NCBI GenBank assembly: GCA_051294375.1
Contig: CM119263.1
Coordinates: 12,441,723 to 12,505,722, forward strand
Direction: 5' to 3'
DNA: 64,000 bases
Origin: Paraspadella gotoi
Taxonomy: Eukaryota; Animalia; Chaetognatha
In this document: positions 322 to 48,240 of the stretch, one piece after another
Layout: each line of letters opens with the position of its first letter
How positions within the stretch are numbered: position 1 is the stretch's first letter
Notes under the pieces: model-generated
Database searches by the model: none
Seen by the model: only the letters and a program-made list of their open reading frames with translations
What the model was told of the DNA's origin: nothing
Made by a program: the position numbers and the translations under genes

Positions 322-2493
322 TCACCACTGTAAACGCGAATCTTTAGACTTAAACCACTGAAGTGCGTACAAAAGTCCTAAGGGCTTGTCAACGGCCTCG
401 TCGTTGGCCATTGCAGCGGTCTCTTCCTTTGTAAGGTGTAACACCTCGATCATCTCCCCCTCTTCTGCTAATCCTCCGCCGGTTCCTTCTCGAAGAGAGT
501 CCTTGACCTAATTCAATTTGAGGTTATTTTTAAATCAGAAAAAAAAATCTGAAAAGCGTAAGGATCGTCGCAATCGCATAACAAAAATCTGGACCCATGA
601 CAAACTTTGATACTCAAAAAATCCAATTTGATACAGGAAAACAAAGTTAAATACATGACAAATTTTGTTTAATATATAAAAAATAAAATTAGCTTAGAAG
701 TATAAAAACAAAGGGAATATCCAATTACAGTTGGACAAACAGACACAAAATTCGATAAGTAAATCGAGAGAGAAACAAGAGAAAAAAAGGAAAAAAAATT
801 TTTTAATAAAAAACTTTGTGTTCTCTTTAATAAAAAACTAAAAAAAATGAGAGGGAAAGAGGGAAAGAGAGAGAGAGAGATAGAGAGGGAGAGAAATAGA
901 GAGAAAGACGCGTAACTTTCAGCTTCAGTCGCTGCAAAGCTCAACTCGTTTTTTGACAAATCAGAACAGGCAGCGATTGAGGAAAAAAAAAAGTTTTTTT
1001 CTTATACTAAATCCAAATTAGATAAAACATTTGAAATATAACATTATCGTTTTTAAAGGACATCGATGATGAGAAGCCATATCCAAATTTTCAGCTTCAT
1101 ACAATTGCACTTTTAAAATAAGGCGATCTATAACATCGTCCCAAAATCGTCGCAAGCGCAAGCGATTGCGTCGATAAAACGGGAAAGTTGCGATGTTATA
1201 GAACGTCGCTACCTCGACAAAAAACATAGTTTGAGTGGAAGCCGCTGTTCCTACTCCTTCCTTGAAGCTGATTATCTTGGTGAGATCGGTTTCATTTACC
1301 CTATACCCTGTTTCTTCAAATACTTCAGCGCAAGCTGAATACCGAAAAAGGAGAATTTGAGAAAGAAAATTTTAGTGATCAAAACTCGTAAAACTTATAG
1401 AGTAGTGCGGGGTAATTCGGAACACTGACAAATAAAATGAAATAAAAAATTAAACAATATTTTTTAAAAAAGTTAAATGGTGCATTGAATTTCTACTTAA
1501 AAATAATTTTCTGGATTGTCCTGACCGTATTTGGAATGCGGAATGTCACTTATGAATTTTTGATTTTAAATCATTTCTACTTGCACAATTCCATCGAAAA
1601 ATTATATCCCCCTCAATCATACACTTTCCTCCCACAAACAAAATTTCATCTCAATTTTATCAATCCAATCACGAGTAATTAGTTTAATGCTTAGGTGGGA
1701 CGGACAGACAAAGAAAGACGGATGGACGAATATAGTTTTTTGTGCTTAATTTATCATAATTTGATGTTCTGAGATGATTTAACCGACAAGGTTTTGGGGT
1801 GTGACCGAAAAATCGACAAAGTCGATAATAGATTAAAAATTAAAAATCACCGACCGGGAAGATCCGAAACGGTGAATATTCAATTTTATCAGCGTTCCGA
1901 ATTACCACGCACTAGCCTAAATCAAATCTACAAATATTTTCAAATTTATCATCATTACATTATTACAACTAATTACCAACTCGCCTATCCGTTCCGGAGT
2001 TTCCTCTTTATCTATGATGCCGGCACAAAGCTCATAGGTGTAGCCCATAGCTGTTTCGCCGGGCATAGTCGAAATAAGCTTGCCCAGTGCAATACCAGCT
2101 TCTAGATCAAAGGCACGGCGCCGGGCAAAGTTTTGAATGAAGACCGGAGGACGGAATTGCCTGACGAACACGAACTTGGACGTTGAAGGGCACGAAGAAG
2201 ATTATAGTCAGTAAATGTGAGTTGGAAGTGGGAACAATGAACGGACGAAGAAAATCTTACCTTTAACTGATCTACGTTAAAAATTAAAACCGCAACCGAA
2301 TCGTGAATTTGGAGCATCTCCCTTAACATACGAAATCACGATTATAAATTTGTTAAATATATTTGAAATATTTATACAAAACTCACCATTTTTTCGAGTA
2401 GTTTCCCAATTTGTAGGACATGGTGAAGGGGCGCACGAAACGGGGAGACTCCAAGGTCCCCAACCTAATGTCAGTTATCTCAGTTTCACTCAT
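322..2493 (-). CDS. NUDT14: Nudix hydrolase, UDP-glucose pyrophosphatase-like (5 exons)
   Basis: Spliced by eye: MSETEITDIRLG..FVRPFTM; WEMLQIHDSVAVLIFN; FVFVRQFRPPVF..GYTYELCAGIIDKEETPERI|ACAEVFEETGY (Nudix box); last exon GGGLAEEGEMIEVLHL..GLLYALQWF; TGA at 322-324. Confidence 0.88.
1402..1914. mobile_element. Intronic repeat bounded by ~21-bp inverted repeats, core related to family B
   Basis: TAGTGCGGGGTAATTCGGAAC ... GTTCCGAATTACCACGCACTA; interior 1570-1830 resembles 23280-23600. Confidence 0.5.
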
Positions 2494-2919
2494 ATTTGTC
2501 TTATGAGGCGTTTTTAAAACCATTGAAGTTAACGAATTGAATCTTTTTAATACAAAAAAAAACAAAAAAAAAAAAAAACTGATGAAATCGTAACACCATT
2601 AGCTACAGTATCAATGAGCCGAGAATTGTAAATTTTGCATAAAATTACATCCGTAAAAAAAAATAAATAATGTGGGAAGACTATCACGCATAGTTTAAAG
2701 CTAAACCATAAAACTAACTTTTGATGATAGTAAGCAGAGCCGATCAAAATTAAATGCTAATGTGTACGGGGTCAAAATAATCTTTAATGCATAAAATATA
2801 GTTTTAAAATATTTTTGTAAAAAATCTTAAATGTATAGTGATCTCGCGGGACGTTTCTATCAAAGAAAATTAAAGAAAAAATTCGAAAAAAAAAGAATGA
2901 TTGATGCAATAACGAATTA

Positions 2920-3100
2920 TTGATGTAATAATAATTGATTATTAATGCGATGATAACCAATTATTGATGCAATGATAACCAAATATTGATAGGATGATAA
3001 CCAAATATTAATACGATGATAGCCAAATGATGGATACGATGATAACCAAATGATTGATGCGATGATAACCAAATGATGGATGCGATGATAATCATTCATT
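2920..3100. repeat. Degenerate ~21-bp minisatellite (GATGATAACCAAAT...)
   Basis: About 7-8 imperfect units; related inverted tract at ~22040-22230. Confidence 0.8.
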
Positions 3101-4873
3101 GACGCGATAAGTAAAATAAAATAAAACATGCGTGTATGAGTGAGCAAAAAAAAAAAAAAGAATCTGAACAGCCGCTGCAGAGCTGAACTCGTTTTTAAAA
3201 AAATCAGTAACGGAAAAAAAGAGTGACATATATTTAAAAAAGATAGTAATTCGTAGTCATTTTTACATAAATAATTATTTTGTAAATAAAACAAACAAAT
3301 ATGTGTAGCAATATAAAACATGTAAATCTAAAAGATCTTGCTGATTAGAAGCTATATCTAAATTTTTAGCTTCCTATGGTTACACACTTTTATAATTTCC
3401 AATGGTAAAAAAGCGTAATGACGATGATAACGGTTACAAAGATGCAGAAGCGATCCTATATCTCGCCCAAGTCTGGCGAGATAATTATAAACATTTAAAA
3501 CGCATATAAGATAAATCAGTAAACAGATATACCAATGAGATAAAAAAAAACTATCTCTGAGAGTACTAGTAAAATCAAAATTATCATACAAAATAAAAAA
3601 AACTTTACATCTTAAAATTTTATATTGGATACTGACAGAGTATAAAAGTTGAACAAAAAATATAATTAAAATTTAAAAAATTATTATATTTTTTTAATAA
3701 AAATTTTAAATCATTAAAAGATGATAATGGTGATATTTTCATGGTCTTACTTATTTTCGACCTACTTCACATCAAAATATTAAAAAAAGAATTATACTTT
3801 GTGTAGAAGGCTATCTGAATCTAGTCTTAAAAATAAAATGTTATCAAAAAATTGTTTTGCCGTTTCTATCTATAAATGTTTAAAATTAATTATCATGGTA
3901 TAGGGATATATACAATTTTTTTTTCTTTAAAAGTTTCCTTAAAAATATCTACATTTTTATTTGAGAAGGTACTCACTTAAAATATTTGACTCACCCCAAT
4001 GAGTCAAACTATCCCTATTCAGAGAATTCAATGGAGACCGTGTATTATGTAAAGTATATCAAAAAACAGACATACATGAATAGAAATATAAAATTTGAAT
4101 TGGTACAAAAACACTTTGATTTCAGGAGATACAATAATTATGGATCTGCGAAATGAATAAAATAGTCTGGCGAGATAAAAAAAGGCGAAGCGTTTTAAAG
4201 CTTTCTATAATGGAATTGGAATGTATACTGATCAAATAACAAATAGGAAGCTGCGTAAGTATAAGGAATTAGATTGTTCAACGTAAGGAGATGGTTGTAT
4301 ACAACCATCTCTATACCATATACCAGTAGAGTAAAACCTCCACCTAAATTCGTTACTTGCTTCACCAGATTCTCGTAAATTTTCAATTCAGATCGGTGTC
4401 TCAATTAGTATATTGTCGGAAGCATGAATTAACATCTGATTCTTAATTAAAACGAGGCAAATTAATTTTTAGCACAAGATCGTTATAAAAATAACAGCCC
4501 AGTAATAATTTTTACTAAAATTTTACATTCGCTGACAGGGATTTTCGCTTCTTATGAGTAAAAATATAAAAAAATTCATTACACAAAAAATGTAAAAGTT
4601 GGTCCGAGTTAAATGCTAATTTGCAGTGATTGAAGAGTATTGAACCAGTATTAAATCTTTTAAAACCAATTTTTAAAAAATCACCAAAAATAATAAAAAA
4701 AGAGATCATTACAACTCAATTTACCACGAAATCAAATTCCCATGCGACATAGTTCACAAAAGAAAATTTTCAGAGGTTTTAAGCGTATTTACTTAATACA
4801 AACACCGTTATCCTTCGATCAGACCAAATAGCAGCAATAATAAATATGTTATATTTAGCGATCAGAAACAACA

Positions 4874-7800
4874 TTAATTGAGCATTGAGGGCGGAAACAT
4901 GCCAAGCTGAACAAAATCGTCCAGTATATCTACTAAGCTATTTTTGGTGAGTTCAGGTTTTTTATATTCGAAGCCCAGCTCCTCCATTTTTGAACCATCA
5001 AGATGAATAGGATAGTTGTTCAATAATTCTTCGTATAAGTAAGGGTTTAATGGGGTGTTGGAAAAGCCATCGTCTCGACATAACTTTTCGGAACAAAATT
5101 TGATTAATTTCATATAATCACATAATTGCGCTCCTCAGTTGAGACTAACCGTCGCCCAAGGCACCATGTGCTTGTCATTACATTCTTCTACGAAGCCCTG
5201 TAGATCTTTATTGGCAATATTAGATAATATAAAGCCAGCATAGCCATGAGTTATACCAAAAATTTCGGAAATCAAAGTTGTAACTTTCCCTTGCGTGGTG
5301 CAACCTTTGTCCACCATATGATAAACTTCAGCGACCTGGGTAAATCGTTTAAAATTTTTGAAATAAAAAATATATCAAATAAAAGTAAAACCTGCGCAAT
5401 ATTTTAGGTACTCTCCCTCAGCATCGACTACTGCCTGCATTCGTCTGGGCATGCTCTCGTACAGCGAATTGAAGTATGATGGTAAAATATTTTTTTTAAT
5501 TTTTAACAATAATTTTTTTAACCCTGCATTTTTAAAAAAAAAGTTACAATAACACCTTTATAAAATAATTAACTTAATTTAAAAAAGAAATAACTGAATA
5601 CCAAGAATGATAAAAAACTAAATACGATTTATTTCGCCATTTTTCACTTCACTTTTCACTTCATTTTTTGCCTGTAACTTTAAACCATTTGACCTATAAA
5701 AAATAGACAAAAACTACTAAAAAGAAATAAAAACTTTTTAATTTTTTTAGAATCAAACAAGTTTTTGAATAGATATCTTCCACTAAAAATATGATGTACT
5801 TTTTGCCTACTGTCCTGTGTAAAAAAAACGCGCGACTTTATAACTTTAAATTTTAAACGCTCTATAAAGATATTTTTAAAAATATATAAGTAAATAATTT
5901 AAAAAAAAAAGGAATCAATGTGTCTAAATTATATTAAGTCAAATGATTTAAGAGATATGATTTTTTAAACTTAGGTGTTCCAAAACCAAACGGGAAAATC
6001 GACTTATTAGCACAGCTTTCTTTTAACTAAAAAAACTAAAATGAAAAAAAAGCTATCATTGTGGTTGTAAAAAAGCTTTTAATATTCTGATTGCTCAAAC
6101 ACATATTCCAATGTCTCTATATGAAAGATGAGCCAAAATTTTAAACATTTCATTTTTTTTAATAAAAATATATCTTATAATTGAAAGGTCCTATTCAAAT
6201 ACAATTAAAAAAAAACAAAAAACATTAATGAGCATTAATTAACTAAAAAAGTAAGTAAGCTGGACTATTGGGAGTTAGAAAATAAAAAACGTCAGTAATT
6301 TTTTTACCAGAAAGCAAAATCTGAAAAAGCTAGATCAGATAATTTAACCACAGTATTGGATCATTTTATTTTATCCGTTTATTTATTATTTTTATTTATT
6401 TATTATTAAAATCCGTATAAAGCTTCAGAAACATGGACCTGTCTTTCATCATATGTTTTAATGACTTATAACTTTAAGATTATTATTTAAGATCTAGGGT
6501 AATCAAATTATCCAGCTATCACTCCGGATTAAGGCGTAGTGAAAGTTACATACGAAAATTCTAAAAGTCAATTATGAACAACATACCATCAGTGAACATT
6601 AATTTGTAAAAAAAATTAATTTTATGTTTTTTAATTTTCGCAGTAGGCTATATTTATATATAGTACTATCCTTATAAAATCGAAAAATTTTAAAATAGGC
6701 CTTTTTTAATTTTTATTGCAGATTTGAATTCCTCGTCAAAAGTTGATAAAAGAAAATATAAATCATTTTTAAAAATTTTTTCATTAAGTGGGTTAAAAAT
6801 TTAAAAAACTATATTTAATATATAAATTAAATAAATAAATTAATTTTCAGCTTAAAATATAGCTTTTTCTAATTTTTGACCCACTTAATGAAGCAATTTT
6901 TCAAAAAGAGTTATATTTCTTTTTACCAACTTTTTATGACGAATCCAAATCTATAAAAAAATCTTAGAAAAAACTGTTTTGAAATTTTAACATTTATTGG
7001 TTTAGTACTAGTATAAATATGGCCTACTGCGTAAATTGTAAAATTTATTATAAATTTTTTTATTACATAAATGTTCATTAGTATAATGTTGTTCGTTCCT
7101 CACTTTTAGAATTTTAATTAAAGTTAAATTTAAAAAAATTACTGCGCCTTACTCCGGATATTCAGTATTTGCAGTAAAGTACTTCATTTAAAAAATCATT
7201 GCTCCTAAATAAATGGCCCAATTTTAATAAAATTTATGCTAAAAAAATCATCTTTCAATAAACTTTAAATCGCTTTTAAATTTTTTTACAAATTCAAATA
7301 TATAAGGTGATTTTTAAAGTCTGAATCAATTTTTTTTTTTGCACAGGACCTGTAGATGGTATGATAAACTAATTTTTATTTTGAAATTCTAAAACGAGTA
7401 AAAACTGCAAAAATAAAAACCTTACGAGCCACAAGATTATTTCTTTTCTACTTTTGGTAATTGCTATACAGGTTACAATTGTATTTTTCCCTAAACTTAC
7501 TTGGCCATATTGAGAAAGATGCCAAAGTCCGCGGACGAGATCATCAACGTGTACTGTATTCAACATCAAATCCGCCGACCACAAAAGCTTCATCTTTTCA
7601 TTCAAATATTTATAAACGGCTCCCAAAACCTTAAGAAATTAATTATGACGAAAAGGTTTCTTCCAATGGGATGCAAATGTTTCTCACCATTCTTGGAGTA
7701 AGTCCGTAACGATCTGCCTTGCCATAAACAATCGCGGGTCGAACAATGATGTAATTTAAATTTTCTATTTTAGCTAGTTCGTTTTCAACCTGAAGACAAT

Positions 7801-10800
7801 ATTCACGTCTAATGTATTTAAGGTATATCATTATATATATATATCATATCATCCATTAGTATTCAATGACAAATTGAACATTTACCTGTAATTTGTATCT
7901 CGATTCTTGGCACCACGGATTTGTATTACGATCTTCTTTGGCGGCAGCTTTGTCAGCGTGAGAAGGTGAGGTTAATCCTAAAACGAAGTCGCTCTTAAAA
8001 CAAAAATAAAAACTGACATGGCATTTATTGAACAAGACACCTTTTATGAAGTTCTTTGATTTTTCGGAACAATACATGAGTCCCGAGGAGATCTCAATGA
8101 ATCGTTTAGCTTTGGCTTTGACTGCACAACGAGCGCAATTGATACTCAATTGAAAAATGCCTTCCTATAGGGAGAAAAAATTAGGTAAAACTAAACCCGC
8201 ACGCATTATGAACGGTAGTTAAATTTTCATAAATAAGGGATGGAAAAAAAAAAAGAACAAATCTTGGAAAGTAATGATATATTGTCGCCCGAGAGAAAAC
8301 GAAACGGGTAGTGAAAAAAAAAAGAGAGAAAAAATATTAAGAGAAAAAACGAGAAACAGAAAACAAAAACAAAAGATAACGGTTGAAAAAGAAACAAAAA
8401 AAATCTTAAAAGCATAAGGATTAGACACATTTTTTTCCGCAGAAAATGTGTTCTAGAAGAGTCCAAAAAGGTGTCATTCTTTCGTATTTACACGTTCTTT
8501 TAAGAAAAAAAAACCTTGCAAAAGGACTTTTTCAAAACATCTCGCCTCTCCCAGGGGCGTCAAAGTGCCCACGAGCGTCAAATTTACGATTTTGGACAAT
8601 TATTTCTTATTTTTCTTGTGGAATCAGCCAATTTTAAATAATTTTTCAATCGACTATTTATGATTTTATTAAATTTATTCAAGGTTTAAAAAAAAATTTA
8701 TAAGTATCTTTAATCCGGAAAAAAATTCTACAGACCGGAAGTTGACTCTCAAAACAGTTATATTTCGAAATAAAAATTTCAACTTAGGAGAGGTTTGCCA
8801 AAAAAAATACCTAAAGAAAGCCTAGATAATATTGCAATTTTGTTTAATTTAAATATATATATGTTCAATGATTTTGATTCTTTTTCTAAAGGTCTTTTTT
8901 TCCTATAAATAAGAACAATGCAAACCGTCTGCCAGTCTATTATCAGAGTTTAGGTATTACAAAGAGGCTGGATCATTTTCAGAACTCCGCCGTGTTGCAC
9001 ACCTCCAAAAAGGCAGAGAATATTCTTCAGCGGCTTCTTTTCATGTATTTCTGAGTTCAATCGACAAAACAATCAAAATAAGAAAGTGCGGGCTTATAAC
9101 TGTCGCTTTTGAAGCTGACAGAATTATGGAAAACTTTGGAGATCCCGCTTCCTCTTCAATGCATTCCACTGTCAAGAAGGCAAATCCTTGCTTTACGGGA
9201 AGATCTTCATTTCTTTGCGACAAAGTTCAAGGCTGAACTGAGATTCCTACAAGAAAAAGGTTTTGCTAAAAATATACATAATTATACAAAATTGTACATA
9301 TTGCCTTTTTGATGTAACTATTTAAACCTAACAGTAATTACTCCTTTATGTACGTTGGCTTCATTTATCAAGGACTCAGCTCCTGCACGAAAAAATTCAA
9401 GAGTTCTTTGCTTTAACTATATTCTTTGACCGGCCAATGTTAGATAGAATTTGATGGGCAATATTGCTATTTTTAAGTTTCAAAAAAATCCGACATTAAA
9501 CATGAAAATATTACCAAAAATCTTCGGAAAATCACCCCTTTCTTTGGAAGATTTCGCCATTATACGAATTTTTTTCCGAAATCTGACCTCCCGGTTCTGA
9601 AAAACCTCTTAGATTTCCGTATCGTTTAGCTCCTCGTGTTTAGAATTTTACTTTAAATTAAAATTTCAGCAAAATGCTAATTCATTTAACATGATCATAT
9701 CATTAATAAATAACAAATAATGTAAAAGAAAAATTTGAGAGCCCTTTCGACATATTGCTATCAGATTCCTGAATTCTTAAGTTTATTGTAAAATGACCAA
9801 ATATACCTTAAATGCGTGCGACATTGTATTGAATTGAGAAATCCCTTTATTTTATATATTTAAAAAATTGCGTCAAAAAATATTTTCCGAGCGGACCCAG
9901 TCGGCATTTGAATCGAATGGTTCGATGTCAAAATGATGGTTATTTGGTCAAGAGAAAAAAAATGCGAGCCTTCAGATGGCAAACAGGATCGATCGAGTGT
10001 CTTTTATACAATCTATTTTTACCTGAATTTTTTTTCCCAGGCGAGGCGTTGACCATTATTTGTTAGTTCAGATTTTAACGAAAATCTCCATGAAAAGTCT
10101 TCCTCGATTTTCTAAGAACGACGTAGACTCCTATTTATTCATAATGCGCGACTTTATTTTGACGTTTACTGCGGAGACGCGCTCGAAATTCATCGCCAAA
10201 AGATGCGAAAAAGACAAAGGATGCTTCGGTCGAAGGATGCAGAATTTGTTCGATCGTCTTCGCCTTCAATTAGTTTGTAAAATTCGGAGCGGCGCGATTG
10301 GGATCATAACAATTACGATTTGACCGGACTCGCGCTTCCGAAACGATGGTAGCAAAGAGGCTCGCTCGAGAAAAAGGATCTTGATGAGAAAAAACGGTGA
10401 GACCGGATTTTCATTTTAAAGTTATTTGAAAGTATTACAATCTGTGATGGTATTATGAAATAGCATTTTTAAAAAAACTTTTTTACCAGATTAACAGGCG
10501 AATACAACAGTGCTTGCTATCCTTAGTGTCCTAAAAAGATCCAGAGGATTCGATCACTACATTATGACGATGTATGATTCAGAATGGGTCAGTCCGACGC
10601 TACAACAGTCGAAAAATGCCGGGAAAGACTATTTCGGTCCACATTAAAGCAGGCGAGAGTGGATACGGTCAGCCTCTGCGCTGCTGACTCGGGCACGTTA
10701 TCTACCGACAATCTTTTTTTCTCTTACGAGATATTCTTGTCGCGGCGGAAAGTTGACTATTGAAAACGCGTTTTTCTCTCGCTTTCGCTTATTGCCGAGA

Positions 10801-13800
10801 TACGTAGAGAAGTTCATAATCACCAAGTTAAATCTTGTAAAGGTTAAAATTTTAAAAAAAAATTAAAAAACAAAAAAATAAAAAGTTTATTAACATAATG
10901 TCTTCCTCTCCAGGAAATCTTAAATTTTCGGAAATTCTTCAAGGATTTTCTTGGATGGAAAAAAGACGGGAATGACCCAACAACTGCTTCAAAAGTGAAT
11001 GCGTGTCGTGTTGCCAGCCAGTTCGTGGGCCTGGATGGAAAATAGAAAAGTTTCTTGGAGGACACTGCAATTGCGAGAAGGGCACGGGAGTCCTTGTTTG
11101 CTGTGACGCCGTGAGATCGATTTTTCTTTTCATGGGTTTAGATTCGACAAAGTATTGCCCTAAATTACGACACTGCAAAGTGTTTAATATGGCCAGCAGT
11201 GGTATGAATAAAAAATTTCAAAACTTTTTAAATTTAGATGATAGAACAATTTAATTATTCAAATGTAGGAGCTTGTGTTGAAATTGAGACGAGGCCATAG
11301 GGAAAGCGGCTCATGTGGTGGCCCTGTCCTTCCACCATAGTTATTACTCATAATCCTGACAAATCCAGGGGGATATTTGCAGGGAATTGATATGCATCGA
11401 CGCGGGCGGGGAAAAAAACACCCCACCCCAAAGCAAAGAAGTTTTAACTTGAAAACTTGATTTTTTTTTTGTCCCATAAAACTTTTTGTTATGAACGATC
11501 AATAATTATTTTAATTTTTAAAATTTGTCTTTGCCATTTTTTCTTGTAACAATTAAATTATTAAAAGGTATTGAATCTGTGATCTCAATTTTTTCGTTTT
11601 TAGGGAAAAGTTCAAGCCAATAACTTAACTTATCGGTTTAATATATTATTAAAAAATGCCTAATAACTGTTTGAGGTTGTTTTAAATTAGATTAAATATG
11701 TTCGGGTAACTTTTAAGTATAACCAAATAATTCAAATTTCATTCTTAATTTATAATTATCTGAAAATTTTTTTTGAAAAACTCAGAGAATCGTTAAAAAC
11801 AATTATTTTGATTGACCGTAGCAACTTTAAGCTCTGGGAAATGGCGAGATATTTAAGAAAAAAATGTACTTAAAAATGCTTTTATGTTTGTATAGCTCCT
11901 AAATACGAAAAGAATGGACACCCTTTTTCCGTAACTCTATGACAATTATTCAGCGGAAAAAAAATTTCTTAAAAGGATATCGTCGTAATCGCATAAGAAA
12001 AATCTGGATTGACGACAAATTTTGATACTGTGGCAGCAAGACTTAAAGCTGCCTCACTGCTGTCCGTCCTCAGCCTCGTCTCAATGGCTGAGCAGGCTAA
12101 ATCATCTCATTCCATCCGTGCGTCCCGGGTTCATCCCTGGGTATCCGGTTCTGGCTTAAATGTGACGGTGCCGGTATAAACATGCCAGTGACAGGAGGCG
12201 GTCACTGAGGGTCCGCAGCCCCTACGCCAGTTGGTGAATACCCCGCGCCCCGGGTATCACAGGCTATCCTCCCGTTGCCATAAGTGGTGAGCCCTACTCT
12301 CGAACACGCAACTGCTGCGCACCGTGCGCTCATGCTTACGTCGCTTAGGGTATGCATATCACGCCTATGCCCTACTTCTCTGGTAACGCTCCAGACTCGC
12401 TCGCCCGCTCGCTTCACTATGGCAATGAGATCAAAACCTTCTCTCAGACATCTCCTCAGGATTGAGGCCCCTGTGGAGAAGTCTGGTGGGGGATCCTGTG
12501 GCAGCAAGACTTAAAGCTGCCTCACTGCTGTCCGTCCTCAGCCTCGTCTCAATGGCTGAGCAGGCTAAATCATCTCATTCCATCCGTGCGTCACGGGTTC
12601 AATCCCTGGGTCTCGCCGGTTCTGGCTTAAATGTGACGGTGCCGGTATAAACATGCCAGTGACAGGAGGCGGTCACTGAGGGTCCGCAGCCCCTACGCCA
12701 GTTGTGTGAGATACCCCGCGCCCCGGGTATCACAGGCTATCCTCCCGTTGCCATAATACTAAAAATAATCAAATTTGAGCAAAGAAAATTAATTTATAAA
12801 CAGAAAGAAAAAGAAAAAAACAATAAACAAAGAAAGAATAGAAAGGAAAGAAAGAATAGAAAGGAAAGAAAGAATAGAAAGGAAAGAAAGAATAGAAAGG
12901 AAAGAAAGAATAGAAAGAAAAGAAAGAAAAATAAAAAGAGTAACGAGAAGAAAGAACGATGTTGCGATAACAAAATGATAACATGCACGAATGCGATGCC
13001 TAATTTTACGAGTTCAATCCCAATTCAATTTTTTTAATAAAAACGCAGAGAGAGAGAAGCCAAATCGTTTTTGGACGAATCAGCAGGAGAAAGAGAGAAA
13101 AAGAAAGAAAGCCCCTGCAGTGCCCAAGGAATCAGCGACTGGGGAAGGAGAGAGAGCTACATATAAGAGAAAAGAGAGAGAGAGAGAAAGAGACATAAAA
13201 ATAAAAGTAGAGCAAAATTGTTTATTTTGATAAACGTAAACAAAACGTATTTAATAAACGTCCTAACACAATTTCAAGGACCTCGATGATGAGAAGCTGT
13301 ATATAAATTTTCAGCTTCATATACCCAAATTTAATCTTCAAAAAGGCGATCTATAAATTAGAACGCCGACGACGACGACACTTATGTTCAAAAGCGTTAC
13401 GAGATCGTAGCAATCGCTTTGCGTTTGCGAGGATAACAAAAAACAAGAACGCTCTTTCCAATGTGTCGCAGTAACTTTCTTACTTATTTCCATGTGATTA
13501 CATTATAATATAATTATAAAACATATAACTTATCTGCAGTTTTAACTAAAATGACTAATTATTATACAAAATATATATTATTTTTTAATACATAACCGTA
13601 GTTTTACGAAATAACGTGACTAAATAAGTAAAACATTAATAAATGCTTTTTGTACGTTTCTTATTAATTTATTAAATATAAATTAAAATTTAATATTTTA
13701 TGAATAATATAGTATAAATTTTTAGTTTATATACATACTAAAAATACCTTTTTACTAAATATAAATTTAATAAAATATTATTAAAATTATAAACATTTAA

Positions 13801-14532
13801 AACGCAAATAAGGTAAAGCAGTAAACAAGCATACCGACCGACCAAAAAGTAAGTTATAGTTACTCCGCGAGTACGCAAGAAGACTTAGTAGGCAACGGAC
13901 TGGCTGACCTTGTAAACGGAGTCGTCTTGGCCAGGACGCGTCTCCCCTGCGCAGTTAAAGACGAAATCCCAGGTCTCTCCTTCCTCGATAAGGGATTCCA
14001 CGGCTTTCGCGTTTATCAAATTGGTAGAGACGAACTCAACTTTGCTTTAACGGGGAGCAAGCGAAAAACATTCAAAACTCTTGATTGATGCTCCTATTCA
14101 AGGTCATAATAGTTTTACACTCTATAATCTATACTTAAAATGCTGACAGAAGATAGAAATTAAGAGACATTAATTGTACGGAATACGTGATAATACCGTT
14201 CAATATAAGCAGTAAAGTGCACTACCAAACTGCAAATAACAATTATTCAAACTCCTTACATAAATTTTTAATTTCATTTTATTTGTCAGTGCTCCGAATT
14301 ACCCCTTTCATAATTAGCCGGCACTACCCTACGGCCAGGGTAAATCAGTACAAAGGAGTGTCACTTACCCTATAGCGCGTTTGGCCTCCTCGTTCATCCA
14401 ACTCAGTTCGGGGGGAACTTTATCCACGACTTTGACTCGGGAACAGAGATTATTGCTTGTGAGATACTGAACCAAATGTCTTCCTATAAAACCCGTACCT
14501 CCGAAAATCAGACACGTCGGTCTTTCAGACAT
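4874..14532 (-). CDS. NAD-dependent epimerase/dehydratase (extended SDR) family protein, multi-exon
   Basis: Exon 1 MSERPTCLIFGGTGFIGRHLV (GxxGxxG); WDFVFNCAGET (~13905-14045); RFIEISSG; IIVRPAIVYG; NTVHVDDLVRG; C-terminal exon 4874-5060. Two large repeat-filled introns. Confidence 0.82.
5399..5482 (-). pseudogene. Tc1/mariner transposase C-terminal relic
   Basis: Translates to PSYFNSLYESMPRRMQAVVDAEGEYLKY, matching the Tc1 C-terminal SMPRRxxAVIxAxGxxTKY motif. Confidence 0.8.
5810..7354. mobile_element. Tc1-type non-autonomous element (related copy ~42808-44276)
   Basis: TA-flanked imperfect TIRs CTGTCCTGTGTAAAAAAA / TTTTTTTGCACAGGACCTG; same ends in the TRAM1 intron; contains a nested long-IR MITE ~6520-7160 (related copy ~54680-55070). 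Confidence 0.55.
8430..11963. mobile_element. Degenerate ~3.5-kb TIR DNA transposon, superfamily not identified
   Basis: Imperfect ~60-bp terminal inverted repeats (TTTTCCGCAGAAAAT..AAAAGGTGTCATTCTTTCGTATTT vs AAATACGAAAAGAATGGACACCCTTTT..TTATTCAGCGGAAAA); interior has decayed coding-like composition. Confidence 0.55.
12151..12230 (+). ncRNA. Putative twister ribozyme, type P5 (5' LTR, copy 1)
   Basis: P5 CTGGC/GCCAG; P2 ATGT/ACAT; GA-CGG; P1 TGCC-GGTA; T^AA; GC; P3 CAGTGAC/GTCACTG; A; P4 GGG/CCC closing loop TCCGCAGC; pseudoknots CGG:CCG and GC:GC. Predicted cut between 12177 and 12178. Confidence 0.8.
12622..12701 (+). ncRNA. Putative twister ribozyme, type P5 (3' LTR, copy 1)
   Basis: Identical 80 nt to 12151-12230; predicted cut between 12648 and 12649. 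Confidence 0.8.
12830..12917. repeat. 18-bp tandem repeat AAGAAAGAATAGAAAGGA
   Basis: About 5 units inside the family A element. Confidence 0.9.
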
Positions 14533-21497: not shown

Positions 21498-21567
<70 letters not shown>

Positions 21568-22398
21568 AGATATAATGTGGGCTCAATAATGTAAAAAACG
21601 ATGCCGCGAACAGGGTGCGAACCCGGGTCCTTTGGGTAGAGAAGAGCTCACGCTACGTCCGGCGCCATAGGTACTGCTGATTCTTTAACGAGTAAAGGGG
21701 CTCTAGAGCTTCTCTCTCTCTCTTTTAATTATTATATATCGCTCTTTCTCTCTCTCTTTTTCTCTGCAGCGGCTGTCTGTTTCTCTCTTTTTCTCTCTGT
21801 GTGTGTATGTCCCCCTCTGTCCGATCTCTTGCGTGATCGTTGTTTTTTGAAAAATTCTGATTATTTTTTTCCTTCTAAAAACTTTTTATTATTACATTTA
21901 TTCCGCGCTTTTTTCAATACAAAATCCCATATTTTCATCCGAGATTTTCGGGGATTTATTCTCTTTCTTTCTCTCTCTCTCTCTCTCACTTTCTCTCTCT
22001 CTCCTCTCTTTCACTCATACACGCATTTGTTGTTTTATTGACTATCATCGCATCAATGAATGACAATCATCGCATCAGTGAATGACTATCATCACAGCAG
22101 TGAATTACTATCATCGCATCAATAATGATTATCATCGAATCAATAATCAATTCCTATTACATAAATAAATTACTATTACATCAATCAATTAGTATTACCT
22201 CAATCAATTACTATTACATCAATAATTCGTTATCGCATGATTTATTCGTTTTTTTCCCGGGTTTTTTCATTAATTTTCTTTGATAGTGGGCTCTGGCTCG
22301 ATCTTGAGTCTTTTAAGATTTTTTTATTTTATGTCTCCTTCTCTCTCTCTCTCTCTCTCACTCTCTCTCTCTCTTACTCTCTCTCTTCTCTCCTCACT

Positions 22399-22429
<31 letters not shown>

Positions 22430-23429: not shown

Positions 23430-23484
<55 letters not shown>

Positions 23485-26549: not shown

Positions 26550-26564
26550 TTTGTTGTAGCCGAA

Positions 26565-36863: not shown

Positions 36864-36902
<39 letters not shown>

Positions 36903-39767
36903 ATTTTTGCAAACAAATATTTAATAATATAATATATTTGAATTTGGTCGCTAACCCTAATTGAATCAAATATGAAACAACTTTAAAATTAAAATAAAAA
37001 TTAACTTTTAAAATAAAATAATAACTTTAGGTTAACCAACCTAATGATATAAATTTTAAAAAAGAATAACAGTTTTTAAATCAACTTATTAGAAGCTATA
37101 CAAATCTGCCATATAAAATAATATAATATAATAAAATAAAATATTTAAAAATTCAGTTTTTTTAGGATAAAGGGCAGTTTTAAAACCATGCACTTTATAA
37201 ATATTCGGCCTTGAAAACTAGCCCTCACAATTGAAAAACTCACGACGGGTTTGCAAATGGCAGTTTCTTTCTAGCGGCGGGTTTTAAATTGTCACCATGT
37301 ACTTTATGTACGAGAGTATTTAAGAATAAGTTGAATATATTGTTCACACACCAATTTAAAGAAATAATTTTCTGGATCAGCAGAGGTTTCTAAACTACAT
37401 AGAAAATATTACTTAACAACCTGAGTTGGTTAACTTCGTCTATCTCTGGATCATCTAGGAACAACTTGGAACTTTGAAGGGTCGACAAATTCTTGCCTTG
37501 AAAATCACCAATCCTGACGCCGCGCGCAGCCAAAACTACAGAACGGTTAAGCTCCGACGGAAAGTCAATTGCCTAGTTTAAGTAGAAAAAAGAGGCCATA
37601 ACTGAAAATATTATATCCTAAATAATCGAAGGAACGAAAATTTAACAAAATTAAATGACAAACTAGTATTGGTATAATTGTATGAAACAAACTTACCTGC
37701 TGTCCCCAAAGTGTAAGGCTGACCATCTTTTTACTGCGGTCAACGATCTGTAAATCACGCTTCGTCAATTCACGCGAATCTTTTCGTGAGATTAAAGTTG
37801 CGACTTCTCCGCAAAGCTTGACAACACCTAATACATGCATAAATAAGATGTCAGCCCACTATAGGTTCAACAAAATTATAAATCCTAATAAGTTTCCAAT
37901 TACCCACGACATCGATGACCTCTCCAACATCGATGGTCTCTATTTCGGAAATGCTCCGGAAATCGAAACGAATTTTAGGTAAGTCTCGATCGTCTTCGCA
38001 TAACTCGACAATCGACTCCCGCTGAAGGGTCAATTCGTATTGGGCATCCGTTTTGTTGAAGCTAAAACGATTGCCGTTACAGAACGAGTAAAGTAAAGAC
38101 CAGAATCCGAGCTTTCCTTTCAATTCTCACCGAGAGTCCTTGGGTTTGAGCGTTCCTTTTTGAATGTAGTAGACCTTTCCCTCTTTAATAACGTCAAAAA
38201 ATTTAGTGCATTCCTCTTTGAAGGCGGTAACCTTCATTGTACTCGACTCATCTTGTATCTCAAAGGAAAAGAGCGTTCCTTCGCCCCGGGCGTTGCTCCA
38301 AGTTCTCTTGTCGTTCTTTACGACGACCCGAGCTTTGATCATCCATTTGTTCTGATATGGATTCAGCGCTTTGATGGGATGAACGTTAGGACGAGCGTGA
38401 CCATTGTTGTTTTCTTTGGATGGTCTGGGAGGCGGCGGTTTAGCTGCGGTGTTAGTTGTCCGCGGGGCCATATAGTCGGAGCGGGGAGCGACAGGTTCCC
38501 TGGCCGATGGATTAGCCGGTGTTGACGATGCATTATCGGCGGAATCTGCAAATTTTGTCGGATTTCCGATGCGAGATTCACATTGCTTTAAGATCTCCAC
38601 CTCGACGAGTACTGCGGGGCGGGCAGAGGAAAAAAGAAAAAGAAAAACCAAGTGGATCAATAATAATAATAATATTAAAAATTTTACCCGATAAAGCAAT
38701 TAGGCATTCTGAAAAAAAAGTCAAACAAAAACAAGCAACTATTTAATATATATAGTACCTGCGAAATACTTCTTTGTTCCTCCCGCTCCGGGAGCCTCCG
38801 TAGCATTGCAGCGCGTAACGCGTAGAATAGTGTTTGGCCGGATTTCATCGTTGTCAACGACTTGATTGTAAGTACTGTTCAGCATCGCGCTGGAAAGGTT
38901 GATAAAAAATATTGACGCTATGAAAAAAGCCCTCAATGTTTTTCTGTTAAGAAACAGAATACATACAGAATGCTTCTACTTATATTATATTATAAACTTA
39001 TGCTCGCCCGTTTTATCGATCAGAAAATCGTTTTCGACCAAATTACTGATCCAAATGCAATGAAATTTCGTATAACGTATCGTATTGGCTATAGAAATTG
39101 GAATATCGAGGAGATTTTTAAAATTCCACCAAAAGCCGAGATATGGGCTCCGAAGTTGTCAGCATGGCGGAAAGTGGCATAATTTAAAAAAAAGGGGAAA
39201 AAATCCCAGTTGGAACAGTTGCAGGAATGTTTGCTTGCTCATAAAAAATATTTTAGCTTTATTTGCATGTCATGTCAGCTTTCATGTGGCGAGCAAAAAT
39301 TCGAGGTAAAATGATGGATCATGCATGTTTCAAGAAAAAAAATTCCTACAGTTAATAAAAATTGGTTTTTAAAGAGCTTTCTTTTTTTTTTACAAACGTT
39401 TGAACGTAAATGATCAAGAAAAAAAATTTTCGTTAATTTTATGCCCCTATGGCCCTGTATCTCGGCTCAGGGGTAAAACAAAAAAAGAGTCGATAATCCC
39501 ATTTGGTTTAATAGTTGGACGAGAAGTCATTCTCGATCAACAAACTCGGGAGAACATTTTCTAATATTAACTTATGTATTTGACTTAGCCACAATATTAT
39601 ATAATATATATATCCTACTTAGAAGAAGAGTGAACGCCGTCATGCATAAGAACTCTGTATCTGCCATTGACGTTCTTGCAGGCTGTAACTTGGATGACGA
39701 ATTCACGACCGTCATAGTTGCCAGTACACAACTCCGCGACAATGCCTGGAGTCAATCGCGGTTCCAT
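27980..39767 (-). CDS. RPA1: Replication protein A 70 kDa subunit (~10 exons; 8-kb intron at ~28497-36473)
   Basis: MEPRLTPG..RYRVLMHDG; HPIKALNPYQNKWMIKARV..WSNARGEGTLFSFEIQDES; LTKRDLQIVDRS..LTLWG; YPACNQEKCNKKV..WR|CEKC; VNLADFSDNCWATLF; ETYNDEARLK; TGA at 27980. Confidence 0.93.
29370..31250 (+). repeat. Insertion-riddled copy of ~25190-26886 (DNLZ intron and exon 1, MRM2 3' end)
   Basis: Colinear with the source but peppered with 1-2-bp insertions; DNLZ frame broken (ORF 30505-30753). Confidence 0.9.
32573..33384 (-). pseudogene. Frameshifted duplicate of the RPP25/Alba gene within the duplicated block
   Basis: Near-identical to 39851-40665, but the ORF is split (32889-33179, 32590-32892) by single-base indels; may be consensus error. 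Confidence 0.5.
34602..35502 (-). pseudogene. Partial duplicate of TRAM1 3' exons (no 5' exons, 1-bp insertion near 35283)
   Basis: Near-identical to 41883-42782; the reading frame is split into ORFs 35160-35483 and 34781-35347. Confidence 0.5.
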
Positions 39768-39850
39768 CAGTCTTACAAAAGAAAATTTAAAGCAAACGAA
39801 CTGAGCAAAAATAGAAAACATAACAATACAAATAATCAAAAACTTTATAA

Positions 39851-40665
39851 TTATATGTCGACTTTTTCTATGAGCGAGGGAGAATCTTCAATGATTTTAC
39901 TGCTTTCTTGCGTATCGTCAAGGGGTTCCGGGGTCTTGCCAATTCGTTGCTCACCAGCTACATCTACAGCTACAGTCTCGTCTATCTCGATGGGAATGTG
40001 AGCGATCAGATCATTCCGAATCGATTCTGGGGTCTTCGACATTATCTCTCGCTTTTTCCTCTTTTCTAGTCTCACTCTCTTGTCAAACTCTTTTCGTTTG
40101 ACTAAATCACTAAGAAGGGTCTCGTCGTCTTCTGGCAATTCCGTTTTCCTAGTTCGTTTTTTCGTCTTCACTCCTCTTTCGATCCTCTCTGATCTACGCT
40201 CAAAGAGTCCCTCCGAGTCGTTTGGCGCTTGATACCCGACGATGCAGTCATCAATTACGTCGCGAGATAGAAGAACGAAGAAGGCGGGAAGAACATCATT
40301 TCTTAGTTGGTTAACAGGCTCGGTAGTGGCCTGGTTAACTTGATAAAGGTCCCGAACCAGCTTCTTCGTCAACTCGGCACAGGCGATCACTTTAGATACA
40401 GCGTCGCCACGTCCTTTCCAAAGGATTTGGTGAACCGATGAATCGGCCAGGCGATTCACCGCATACTAAAAATAATTTTTTGTATAAAATTATATGAAAT
40501 CCTTGGACAAGAAAGAAAAATTTTCCACCTAATAATTCGACAACCGAATATTACGTGAATTCGAGTTCTTGCCTTGACTAGGGATTTGACATTACTCTTT
40601 TCCTTGACGTTCATAACGAGGGCGTTGGGGCTGAGACATTCTACGGGAGTTAACATCTCCGTCAT
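39851..40665 (-). CDS. RPP25: Alba-domain RNase P/MRP subunit p25-like protein
   Basis: MNVKEKSNVKSLVK|YAVNRL..ILWKGRGDAVSKVIACAELTKK..LYQV..LPAFFVLLSRD..GYQAP (Alba/Rpp25 pattern) with a basic/acidic tail. Confidence 0.8.
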
Positions 40666-41882
40666 GGCATTTCACTGGTTAAACGGATTGAAAATAAAAA
40701 ACTAGAGAAGCTACTTGATTAAATAAAACGGGTCTAATAATTCGTTCTATATCTCCATAACCTAAACAACAATAGGATTTACATTCGTAACTTAGCTAGA
40801 AACTGCTAAAATTGAATTTTTAATTAATGTTTACAATTTTTACATATTTGTAGAGCAGAGGAGCACGTTTTTCATCGACCCCATAATGGATGAGCAATCT
40901 CAATAAAACTTATCGGGGAAGAAAAGCGGTAAAATTTCATAAAACAAGATCCATCCATCCATTGTGTTGCGCCGCAGTGACTTTATTTTCATGTGTATTT
41001 CTCGTAACATGACATGAGGCGATATGACTACAACTTCCTTAGCCTGTATATTTATGACACGCACTGCCTAGAAATTCCGTCTTTTATTCTTTAAAGTTTT
41101 AGGATTTCCTAAAGGGGGCGCTAGCAGTCCCTTAGATTTGAAGTTTTTTTCTGTCTTAACAAATGAACATCAATAAACAAATTATGTGCATTTTTAACGT
41201 TAGTGGGACAGACCGACGAACAGACATACCGACCGACAAGTAATTTATAGAGTTGCTCCGCTAGTACTCGCGGCGCAACTAAAAAAATTTAAGATGAAAC
41301 TACAAGATTTTGGAATATAACCAATTCTGTAAGAAAAGTTAGTTCTTCAATTCACGTCTAAATTGACTTCGTGTATTATTTCGATGGTTAGCAGATTAGC
41401 AAATTTGAGGAGATAGTATTGGAGGAATGTGTTGTCTAGTTAAGTAACAAAAATGCGTCGTTACTTAACGCCGAATTCTGAAAACAGCACAATACATACA
41501 TTTACCATTTGTAAAAAGAATGGAAGCTAATGATTTTAACAATGATGTATCTGAAAAAACAAGTGATCCATTTTTCAATTATTTCGTCAGATCTGGTCTT
41601 ACGCCAACGGCTTTTGGAATAAAAACCTTGGCGTACTATTATTCAGCAACTTATCTAAAATGACTAGATATCTCCGAATGCATAAAATTAATCTGGTTTA
41701 CAATCCTAAAATGATATGACCGCGTTATTGATTTTAAAAGTTTCTTTTCGTACATTATTCACTTGACCTAATTAAAATCGAAATCTTCCAAGGGATTTCA
41801 AAATTTCTAGAAAGGATCGCCGAGATATGACACTCAAAAAAAATTAACGAGTGTTCACCACAACACTAAAATTCCAGCGTGC

Positions 41883-44904
<3,022 letters not shown>

Positions 44905-45041
44905 CTATTTTACCAACGAAACTACAAGAATAAAAGTATCACTTGGATACACTTCTCTCAACTAAATCTGGAAAGCAAATACGGCGCAGCAATATTAGTA
45001 ATTAACACTGTCATAGAGGTTTTACAAAAGGCAGTTCTTAT

Positions 45042-46622
45042 TCAATCATTATACCAATCCAAAAACAATAGAGAGAAAGTCATCACTACTAAAAAGAAAA
45101 GAATCCAAACTCGAAAACCGGCATTATTTTTTATTGCGTCTCTGATCTGCTCATTGGCCATTTGAATATTGTCCGTTGTTCCCATCAAATTCTCTCCAAT
45201 TCTATTGATGTCGCCAGCTTGCTCCAGAATCTTCTCAGAGAAGATTTCCTGTACGGGCAAAAATTATAGCGAAATAAATTTAAGAAATTGGAAAACTTTA
45301 AAAAAAAAATAATTTACAGTTAGAATAAAACAGTTCAATAGCGTACATGAACGTTACGTCGCCACAGTGCGTCCATTACAAAGCTTGGACGCACATCTTA
45401 GCCAATACTAACCTGCAGTCGGGCAATTTCAATGACTTTTCCTTCGATTTTCTTGACGTCATCCGTAGTTTCCTGTAACTCTTGATAAAGAGATACGTTT
45501 TCCTGCTCAAACATTTGGAGTTCTTCGGGGGAGAGGCTTTCGGAGAGATGAACGGCTCGAGGGTCGTCGTCTTCGTCGAAGGACGAGGAAGCCCACGTCA
45601 TGTTTCGTTCTGAGGGAGCGTCGTTCTGCGACGTCGGTAGCGGGGAAGATGGCGGCGAAGGCCCAGAATCTGTTGTGAATAAAGATGAATGTGAAACATA
45701 TCCACAATACTTTTAAGTAATTAAAGGAGGTATTAAGCCCAATAAAAACGTTTACAAACATTTCTCTATCAAATAAAAAAAACATTAGGTTTATCTCTAG
45801 ACAGTAAACCACAGCAATGATTTCATTTGTATCACGGAGTAATTAGTATCTTTTCAACTTTCAATTTAACCTGGTTTCCCATTGTGTTGGGTAACAACGC
45901 CTGCCGCAACATTTCCCGGTGGCGTAGACTCATCGGCCATTACGGGGCCATTCACGCCAACCCGCTCCCCATCGAAGACGACTTTTCCCGATCCGTCAGA
46001 TCCAAAAGTTTCCTTCGATTCTCCCCCGATGCGGGATAGCCGTTTACGATCCAGGACACGTTTCACGCGCACAGCTAAATAAAAATGAATTTGTCTAGTG
46101 TTTCGCCCCATCGTCTAGTAGCATACAATGTTAAAGCCAACCTTTCATCTCGGAATAAATTTTGCAAACGATTCTCATATACTGATCGATGCTAGCGAGC
46201 ATAAGCACGCGATGCTCCTCAATTTGACGCGATATATTTTGACGAGCCAACTCTATCCTCATGTTCTTAATATCCTCGCCACAAGATCTCATCACTGCTT
46301 GGGCGTTGCTGTCCACTTGGTCCCTTTCCGTATCACTCATGGATCGTACTTTGTCAAAAATTAAATGGTTGTGGATGTTGATGTAATCAATTCGATGTCG
46401 AAGCAAGAAGTCACGAAGTTTAGTGATTTTGGCAACAATTTCTTTGGCGCGAACGATAAATTCCGACTTAGCATGTTTGTTCGTTTTGTGCATAGAGGGA
46501 ACAGAAAGGCCAAGGAATTCCTGAGATTGACTTGATCCTTCGCGGTAAATTCGTCCCAAAGCTTTGTTACGTGTTTGAATTGTTTTTAAAGTTGCCTTGT
46601 AGATATGAGTTATGTCAGCCAT
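45042..46622 (-). CDS. STX18: Syntaxin-18
   Basis: [41 protein letters not shown]; [25 protein letters not shown]|[48 protein letters not shown]. Confidence 0.95.
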
Positions 46623-46644
46623 GTTGATTACAGAAATAAAATTC

Positions 46645-47189
46645 TTAAGATGGCAGGTTAGGACCCCCCGACATAAAATCGCCAGTTATATCCGAATTGC
46701 TAAAGTCGAATCCCGGGTGGCTGAAAGCGAAGCGTTGCAGTGTCAATTTCTTTTCCATTTCATTTTTTGTAAATGGGTCGGCGATGAACTAAATTAGAAA
46801 AGAGTTGTAAGTATATTTAAGTTAAAATTTTTTTAAGAGCGAAAAATAAATACTGATCGTACTTGATCGACTAGTAATCCGGGCCAGCAACACTCTTTAC
46901 TCGTTGGATCTGAAATAGTCTTCAACAGTTGGATTCTAACAGTTTGATTGTCTTCCAATGTCCATACACACTCGTCAGCCAGAACTTTTTTGTTAAGAAT
47001 ACCACAAATAATTTTTTTGTCTTCTAAATAGACTGAAAGTCTGTCAGGTTTTATTCCAATTCGAAGCTGCTTAGCAATTGTTCCCTTTGGCACGTCAATT
47101 AAAACGTAAACTTCCTCAACAGTTTGATACCAATGTCCCCAAGGTGTTAAACACAATACGCTCCCGGAAGTTTCGTCAAAATGAGTCAT
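46645..47189 (-). CDS. NUDCD2: NudC domain-containing protein 2 (2 exons)
   Basis: MTHFDETSGSVLCLTPWGHWYQTVEEV..DECVWTLED..WPGLLVDQ|FIADPFTKNEMEKKLTLQRFAFSHPGFDFSNSDITGDFMSGGPNLPS*; TAA at 46645-46647. Confidence 0.93.
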
Positions 47190-47469
47190 ATTTCTCGACA
47201 AGAAGTATCATTCTTATTCGAATTAGTAACCTTTAAAATTTAAGGCGGCAATGGTTTCATTTAAACAGTAATTAACCGTAATTAACCGACACTGTCGGCG
47301 ACAGGGATTATGGGGTATTTAGAATTTAGGGTAGTTTATGGGTGGTTAAGGCTAAGAGAGTTCAGTCTTAGGATAATTAGGTAATAATTTTTTAATTTTT
47401 TAATTTTTAAGTGATTTTTCAAAAGACGCCAAAACCCTGGTCGGCCAAAATAAAATTTTATCTATTTTT

Positions 47470-48240
47470 TTAAGTTCTTGATAATACAAGCCACCCAATG
47501 ATGAAATAAAAAAGAAATATAGGATATAACCCCATTGCTTTCTTCATGGGCGGAATAGACGATGAGAGAAATACTGTACTCGCAAAAGTTGACCAGGACA
47601 ATGAAACTACTACAGCTATAAGCCTAATAGCAAACGATATTTCCCACATGTGAATGCTTACAAGCACAAGCCTGCAAACAATTAATGACAGTGCAAGAGG
47701 TAAAACACAGTATCCTAAAATACACACACACTGAAAAAAAGATATCCGCCCTCCTAAAAGTTTAGAATTAAGAGTGACGATTGTGGAGCCGATCCAAAAA
47801 ATCACAAAAACCTCCGCAAACTCAGGTTGACCATCTGATTCGGCGTCATAACCTGAAAGTAAAAAATCCAAATAAACTAGTTTCTTTGCAAATTTGTTTT
47901 TAAAAAATATCATATGTATCAATTAAAAACCTTGAAGAAGGAATGACAATATCACACAAATAAGTAAAGGGCCCCATAAATCCCAATCTTTTAACAAGTG
48001 CTGCCGAGATTGCTTCGGGAAGAAGACGTGTTTAAACTTAGATCCGATTGCTCGGGCGTCTCGCAAAATAGTTTCCTTGATTGGTTCATCCAAAGTTGAC
48101 TTATTATGGGTCTCAACTTGTTGAGAATGTGCGATTTCTCCTTCTAAATTCAGTTCCTGTAATATTACAGGATCGGCGGCAATAGTATTGTTAAATTCAT
48201 CCGAAGGTAAGCTTGAAAACGAAGTCGTAGCCATCTTCAT
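47470..48240 (-). CDS. YIPF6: Yip1-domain Golgi protein YIPF6 (2 exons)
   Basis: STLDEPIKETILRDARAIGSKFKHVFFPK..LLKDWDLWGPLLICV; PEFAEVFVIFWIGSTIVTLNSKLLGGRISFFQCVCILGYCVLPL; YPIFLFYFIIGWLV. Confidence 0.95.

Follow-up and report, generated by a model that had tools for sequence, protein, structure and literature searches.

A run of thirteen tightly spaced co-oriented genes, probably expressed as operons resolved by spliced-leader trans-splicing

The closest described systems to the gene run reported here are the spliced-leader (SL) operons of chaetognaths. A survey of the Paraspadella gotoi genome counts 10,197 trans-spliced genes and assigns 18% of genes to operons by a distance of <250 bp between gene models; these operons are enriched for nitrogen and protein metabolism, and the longest contains nine genes (PMC12460157). 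In the RPS14-PCNA operon of Spadella cephaloptera, 3 nucleotides (nt) separate the poly(A) site from the acceptor, and Table 3 of the same study gives the chaetognath leader forms, including SL2.0, which resemble those of no other phylum (PMC2481426). Flatworm operons reach a maximum of nine genes (PMC12582326). Ciona operons are mostly dicistronic and hold up to 6-7 genes (PMC7986045); some have no intercistronic DNA, with abutting cistrons from which AATAAA is mostly absent (PMC1488885). Here, we describe 13 intact, co-oriented housekeeping genes (322-48240, minus strand) in a 64,000-nt stretch of contig CM119263.1, the whole of which is hereafter called the window. We consider it probable (roughly 0.8) that transcription of this region yields a few polycistronic precursors, which are resolved by SL trans-splicing at unpaired AGs shortly 5' of most start codons.

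All 13 genes proposed in an initial annotation of the window were recovered as spliced minus-strand genes, each with a complete, uninterrupted reading frame once 46 introns are taken out. The exon models are our own fits to the sequence and were fitted for an open frame. The first gene in the run encodes a Yip1-domain protein (YIPF6-like, 47470-48240, 2 exons, 230 aa, PF04893), and it is followed by genes for a CS-domain protein (NUDCD2-like, 46645-47189, 2 exons, 156 aa), syntaxin 18 (STX18, 45042-46622, 4 exons, 382 aa), and TRAM1 (41883-44901, 4 exons, 378 aa). Beyond a longer gap lie an Alba-domain protein (RPP25-like, 39851-40665, 2 exons, 241 aa), RPA1 (27980-39767, 10 exons, 627 aa), an FtsJ-family methyltransferase (MRM2-like, 26565-27698, 4 exons, 281 aa), a DNL zinc-finger protein (DNLZ, 24878-26549, 2 exons, 153 aa), an LCAT-family lipase (19341-24741, 7 exons, 427 aa), SNAPC3 (16860-18971, 6 exons, 387 aa), and a membrane-tailed ubiquitin-conjugating enzyme (UBE2J1-like, 15652-16761, 3 exons, 327 aa). 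The last two genes are an SDR of the NAD-dependent epimerase/3-beta-HSD family (4874-14532, 8 exons, 380 aa) and a Nudix hydrolase (NUDT14-like, 322-2493, 5 exons, 226 aa). Pfam backs the families of 12 of the 13 genes; the Nudix gene matches NUDT14 structures weakly (E 0.004), with TIGR00052 under its cut-off. The finer orthologue names (MRM2, UBE2J1, RPP25) are those of the initial annotation and have Pfam support at the family level. The far end of the run coincides with the window edge, so 13 genes is a lower bound and the run may go on past it. At the other end, the run is bounded by a Ras-family GTPase gene on the plus strand (48775-49997, 3' end approximate), and the divergent intergenic region between them (48241-48774) is, by its position, the presumed site of the promoter or promoters for both the cluster and the Ras-like gene.

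The modeled introns are short (median 89 nt; ≤200 nt in 32 of 46) and comprise 45 of GT-AG and one of GC-AG type; 11 were seen independently as CT..AC joints in RNA-derived contigs. The probable GC-AG intron lies in the SNAPC3 model, at 17343-17348. A second probable GC-AG intron lies in the NUDT14-like gene (1970-1985), where a GC donor would restore the spacing of the Nudix box and the fitted model uses a nearby GT. Intron 1 of SNAPC3 contains a long inverted repeat (18470-18700, spotted by eye). Several coding-like open frames of 60-107 aa, with no Pfam match above cut-off, lie in SDR intron 2 (8913-11254) and may represent a decayed gene or transposon.

The stop-to-ATG gaps in run order are 280, 22, 140, 1217, 83, 281, 15, 136, 369, 98, 1119, and 2380 nt, identical to the base with those reported in the initial annotation. 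Nine of the 12 are <400 nt and six are <250 nt. Thirteen co-oriented genes would be unremarkable alone, as ~2.6 such runs are expected in 21,000 randomly oriented genes; the unusual feature is the spacing, with gaps of 15, 22, 83, 98, 136, and 140 nt. No opposite-strand gene was found in the cluster among 24 open reading frames (ORFs) drawn from introns and gaps (best Pfam E 0.039). AATAAA is absent from eight of the nine gaps <400 nt, with the proviso that short gaps often lack this motif by chance.

This spacing bears directly on whether the genes could be independent transcription units in a compact genome, with promoters in a neighbor's last exon or 3' untranslated region (UTR), contigs merged by UTR overlap, and leaders that only trim outrons. 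Such an arrangement would account for the three gaps of >1 kb and for the lack of a leader in the window's own contigs, and it would agree with the finding that roughly 50% of P. gotoi genes lack trans-splicing and that trans-splicing also affects many genes outside operons (PMC12460157). However, a 3' UTR, a poly(A) signal, a promoter, and a 5' UTR could not all fit into any of the six gaps of 15-140 nt, the missing AATAAA motifs point the same way, and operons exist in the lineage. We therefore regard independent units as improbable for the run as a whole and as plausible for the three long gaps only.

We next turn to the RNA evidence, which consists of assembled contigs from a run, X1, that was taken as RNA by guess; the CT..AC joints in its contigs correspond to spliced minus-strand RNA. 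Three X1 contigs were placed at 44640-48900. The most informative, of 2500 nt, corresponds to 44983-48066: it runs from STX18 across the 22-nt gap into NUDCD2 and on across the 280-nt gap into YIPF6, most of which it includes, with all five introns removed, both gaps retained, and no differences from the window. TRAM1 lies on a separate contig that is collinear to its end and carries no leader. The initial annotation had suggested looking for bridging transcripts and for a common leader: a spliced contig joins the first three genes, and a leader was seen on none of the three contigs placed here, which as assemblies cannot show transcript starts.

A contig of 11,251 nt carries RPA1 exons at contig positions 9751-10297, which leaves 9750 nt downstream of window position 36464. 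If gaps are kept and coding introns removed, its predicted end falls at 3387, 29 nt into a dispersed repeat (3157-3416), and the same length bookkeeping gave three other contig ends exactly. By length, then, this contig would span RPA1-MRM2-DNLZ-LCAT-SNAPC3-UBE2J1-SDR. Altogether, two of the 12 gaps are crossed by a placed contig and six more by length, and crossing was not seen at the other four (STX18-TRAM1, TRAM1-RPP25, RPP25-RPA1, and SDR-NUDT14).

These contigs also bear on the possibility of one 13-gene transcription unit starting in 48241-48774, which would exceed in length every operon described in the cited work on chaetognaths, flatworms, and tunicates. Contigs cover 990 of the 1217 nt between TRAM1 and RPP25 (681 placed, the rest by length), and by length a contig covers all of the 1119-nt gap and 1487 nt of the 2380-nt gap; in addition, acceptor-like AGs precede RPP25 and SDR. 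The same coverage could be explained by long 3' UTRs, however, the long gaps contain AATAAA, and four junctions are not seen crossed. A single unit appears unlikely, and of the initial proposal of one or a few long operons fed from 48241-48774, the few-operon version fits the published distance rule and the 13-gene version is the less likely.

Some contig boundaries coincide with candidate acceptors. The RPP25 contig stops at 39801, which is the G of the AG that precedes RPA1, and the TRAM1 contig starts 3 nt past the AG at 44968; contig-free parts lie at 44965-44982, 39747-39800, 40975-41201, and 48067-48463. As these come from one study, we did not count them as evidence. The starts of the Ras-like and RPA1 contigs do not fit the best acceptors. 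We left a second run, X2, out of the evidence (share 0.07, with a depth of 2-7 over pieces of TRAM1 and NUDCD2), and contig depths (210-620) were not used for ranking genes.

Evidence for a leader comes from relatives of the window's TRAM1 gene. The closest are 63-73% identical over the exon, compared with ≤60% for named animals. In a TRAM1 tree of 35 rows, the window pairs with L001/P0001 (support 98/95) inside a nine-row clade (100/100), apart from 20 named animals; this is a tree of a single gene, with no named chaetognath or nematode row, and of the four loci included only L001 joins the window's clade. Bases 1-17 of the L001 contig match the 3' end of the chaetognath leader SL2.0 at 17 of 17 positions, and this match lies 31 nt 5' of the TRAM1 ATG. 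Among 80 TRAM1 loci, L001 alone carries the 17-base motif. These observations indicate that the window likely comes from a chaetognath and that TRAM1 is likely trans-spliced in this relative, and they lend indirect support, through one gene, to SL trans-splicing in the lineage. Nematode, acanthocephalan, annelid, and other meiofaunal origins were set aside once the leader match had been found; the tree itself excludes the named groups that it contains. Within the window, the 17-base motif has no match at ≤2 mismatches, and Rfam gives no family at gathering score, hence no known SL RNA or snRNA gene.

We scored the AGs 5' of each ATG with a matrix built from the 46 introns. An AG was called acceptor-like if it scored above the lower quartile of true acceptors and lay ≤70 nt 5' of the ATG, a distance and threshold of our own choosing. 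Such AGs lie 66, 60, and 20 nt 5' of the ATG of TRAM1, 33 and 4 nt from that of RPA1, and 9, 8, and 17 nt from those of RPP25, SNAPC3, and UBE2J1; the best one for NUDCD2 is 41 nt away (score 6.7), and that of MRM2 abuts the ATG (score 4.4). The AGs quoted in the initial annotation all exist in the sequence. In total, 10 of the 12 internal genes have an acceptor-like AG, versus 44-52% of control windows (p = 0.007-0.07 over 12 settings). STX18 and LCAT fail, the best AG in the 136-nt gap before LCAT scoring -0.2, and the AG of DNLZ lies inside the MRM2 coding sequence. The acceptor excess appears real but is modest.

Together, these data are consistent with the following scheme. RNA polymerase II would start in 48241-48774 and transcribe YIPF6-NUDCD2-STX18-TRAM1 at a minimum. 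Either the same unit or a second one would include RPP25-RPA1-MRM2-DNLZ-LCAT-SNAPC3-UBE2J1 and perhaps SDR. A 36-nt leader would be joined at AGs such as 47230, 44967, 40674, 39800, 27698, 18979, and 16778, and upstream mRNAs would end near those acceptors, at distances such as the 3 nt of Spadella and the 0 nt of Ciona. The gaps at NUDCD2-STX18 and MRM2-DNLZ contain no acceptor; there, the leader would have to be joined at or inside the upstream coding end, yielding one gene per precursor molecule in the way discussed for Ciona (PMC1488885), or the pair would stay joined. Under the 250-bp rule, with UTRs absorbing part of the 280-, 281-, and 369-nt gaps, the run fits a four-gene and a seven-gene operon plus two looser genes, within the known range.

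Several observations weigh against this scheme. The lineage placement comes from a single gene tree and a single contig that bears a leader. With p up to 0.07, the acceptor excess is weak, and good acceptors are absent for LCAT and STX18. All three gaps of >1 kb contain AATAAA together with 20-34 ATGs and are long enough to hold promoters. That a contig extends over two genes does not establish a single transcript, particularly as X1 is only guessed to be RNA, and the downstream course of the 11-kb contig follows from its length. Besides its absence from the three placed contigs, no leader was seen among six of ~390 X1 loose ends; because graph assemblers often prune short leader branches, a missing leader is uninformative here. 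The initial proposal of SL-resolved operons has gained a likely lineage in which such operons are documented, a leader on a relative's TRAM1, and a contig bridging the first three genes; no leader was seen on the window's own contigs.

The two tightest junctions deserve separate consideration, as the initial annotation had overlooked that neither contains an AG. The 22-nt NUDCD2-STX18 gap (46623-46644, minus strand) is crossed by the spliced contig. The sole AG near STX18 overlaps the NUDCD2 stop (TAA-G) and scores 1.7, under the 10th percentile of true acceptors; another lies inside the NUDCD2 coding region at 46720 (score 4.9). In the 15-nt MRM2-DNLZ gap (26550-26564, minus strand), five sense codons, the MRM2 stop, and the DNLZ ATG share one frame, and the best acceptor-like AG for DNLZ, at 26590 (score 5.9), is 25 nt within the MRM2 coding region. 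The start codons of STX18 and DNLZ both appear genuine: relatives of STX18 have the same N-terminal sequence, and DNLZ has no other methionine ahead of its zinc finger. Read-through of the MRM2 stop was considered and set aside, as an in-frame spacer has a 1-in-3 chance and nothing else supports it. Read-through would fuse two proteins, whose families we take to be mitochondrial.

We also compared contig sizes for the NUDCD2-STX18 pair among relatives. Searches with the STX18 and NUDCD2 exons returned four and eight clusters, respectively. Between the 10 longest-contig sizes for STX18 and the 12 for NUDCD2, five are identical, four of which (1742, 2199, 2172, and 2164 nt) could hold both full ORFs. 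Four of six full-length STX18 relatives, in three species-level clusters, share their exact longest-contig size with a full-length NUDCD2, and all six lie on contigs of ≥1742 nt, with room for both ORFs. In a jittered null, the mean number of matches was 0.11-0.24 and none of 20,000 trials reached four; a control list of 43 TRAM1 contig sizes gave one chance match. In the 1742-nt case, the two ORFs occupy 1635 nt, leaving ~107 nt for UTRs and the gap. These sizes hint at a conserved tight linkage of NUDCD2 and STX18, carried in the spliced RNA of no fewer than three further species-level clusters. With regard to synteny more broadly, which the initial annotation had proposed to check, the sizes speak for this one pair, and none of the other 12 cluster genes lies on any of the 80 TRAM1 loci. 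Two NUDCD2 relatives, P0179 (2643 nt) and P0180 (2422 nt), lie on contigs big enough for YIPF6, NUDCD2, and STX18.

A possible explanation for the tight junctions is that the NUDCD2-STX18 mRNA, and perhaps those of MRM2-DNLZ and DNLZ-LCAT, stays dicistronic, the second ORF being translated by reinitiation past the 15-22-nt spacer while the other junctions are trans-spliced. The lack of an AG in both gaps, the 2500-nt spliced contig, and the contig sizes shared by four of six relatives favor this, and the TRAM1 contig of a relative, by contrast, opens with a leader. However, size matching is indirect and two further matches are due to chance (569 is too short for both ORFs, and 2172 is also a TRAM1 contig size), assemblers merge overlapping mRNAs and precursors, and AGs that could serve as acceptors are present at the NUDCD2 stop as well as within the coding region upstream of each gap. 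We hold this explanation tentatively, as less likely than not. The full combination, in which a conserved, spliced dicistronic NUDCD2-STX18 (and MRM2-DNLZ) mRNA is translated by reinitiation over the 15-22-nt spacer within a 12-13-gene SL-resolved operon, so that one mature animal mRNA would give rise to two essential but unrelated housekeeping proteins, is more doubtful still. No description of such a mixed resolved and unresolved operon was found in the operon literature cited.

The window also contains two duplications, both overlooked in the initial annotation and both within RPA1 intron 7. The first (31354-36142) is 99.4% identical to 38630-43424, from which it differs by 30 one-base indels and no substitutions; 26 of the 30 indels adjoin the same base. 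The second, noisier and indel-rich (29349-31173, 82-94% identical), copies 25167-26830, with 30077-31173 within it copying 25762-26830. Both hold frameshifted parts of TRAM1, RPP25, RPA1, MRM2, and DNLZ. The ~6 kb involved are probably assembly duplicates, introduced as an uncorrected long-read fill, and they leave the gene count unchanged. Because two error-rich duplicates in the window imply that the assembly is locally unreliable, the tight packing itself might be an artefact. We consider this very improbable: the placed RNA-derived contigs agree with the primary copies, without gaps or differences, and cross two of the intergenic gaps, the tight MRM2-DNLZ junction is present in both copies, and the relatives point to the same NUDCD2-STX18 linkage. 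As an observation on annotation, these error-rich copies of flanking genes (28496-36465) would break gene models and inflate counts of duplicates.

Elsewhere in the window, a multi-exon gene on the minus strand (52022-63769) faces the Ras-like gene in a convergent orientation and extends past the window edge; four of its exons match Pfam PF25228 'Lips' (E 1e-5 to 6e-13). At 60371-61858, inverted repeats of 256 nt (95.7% identical) surround a 234-aa ORF fragment that has no Pfam match but resembles the GIY-YIG tail of a Penelope-type retroelement. A GC-rich element of ~735 nt, with copies at 12024-12756 and 57047-57784 that are 96.6% alike and an internal direct repeat of ~260 nt, is possibly derived from a long terminal repeat.

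The proposed mechanism is probably right but not new, since SL-resolved operons are already known in chaetognaths. Chaetognaths were missing from the groups named in the initial annotation (nematodes, tunicates, and flatworms), and this omission made the finding look more surprising than it is. An operon cluster is expected in this phylum, and this one mainly extends the size range; it may already stand in the P. gotoi operon table (PMC12460157). We found no report of this cluster or of a NUDCD2-STX18 operon in a literature search that left subscription papers largely outside, and none of six gene terms appears in the readable Spadella supplements (PMC2481426). The locus offers a precise test case for the resolution of SL operons whose coding regions lie too close together to accommodate a 3' UTR and an acceptor, and it illustrates that long operons can be split and undercounted through distance rules and assembly duplicates. 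If NUDCD2-STX18 were a conserved unresolved dicistron, housekeeping pairs within an operon of an animal would be translated in the bacterial manner.

Among known systems, chaetognath SL operons (PMC2481426, PMC12460157) provide the closest parallel: the phylum is likely the same, the genes are co-oriented housekeeping genes unrelated to one another and very closely spaced, and a relative's TRAM1 carries an SL2 form. They differ in that the longest operon there has nine genes, versus a run of 13 here, and in that two gaps here have no acceptor between stop and ATG. The operons of Ciona and the SL1-type operons of Caenorhabditis elegans (PMC1488885) are similar in that the end of the upstream mRNA would fall almost exactly at the acceptor of the next gene, AATAAA is mostly absent, and expression may be mutually exclusive per precursor. 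The SL2-type operons of C. elegans share gaps near 100 nt, T-rich sequence, and housekeeping genes, whereas chaetognaths show no operon-specific leader and the leader sequence does not place the window with nematodes. Finally, the Drosophila dicistronic mRNAs stoned and Adh-Adhr (PMC2776167) have two ORFs and a short spacer on one spliced mRNA, as proposed for NUDCD2-STX18; there, however, trans-splicing is lacking and the pairs are often related, whereas here an unrelated pair would lie inside a putative SL-resolved operon.

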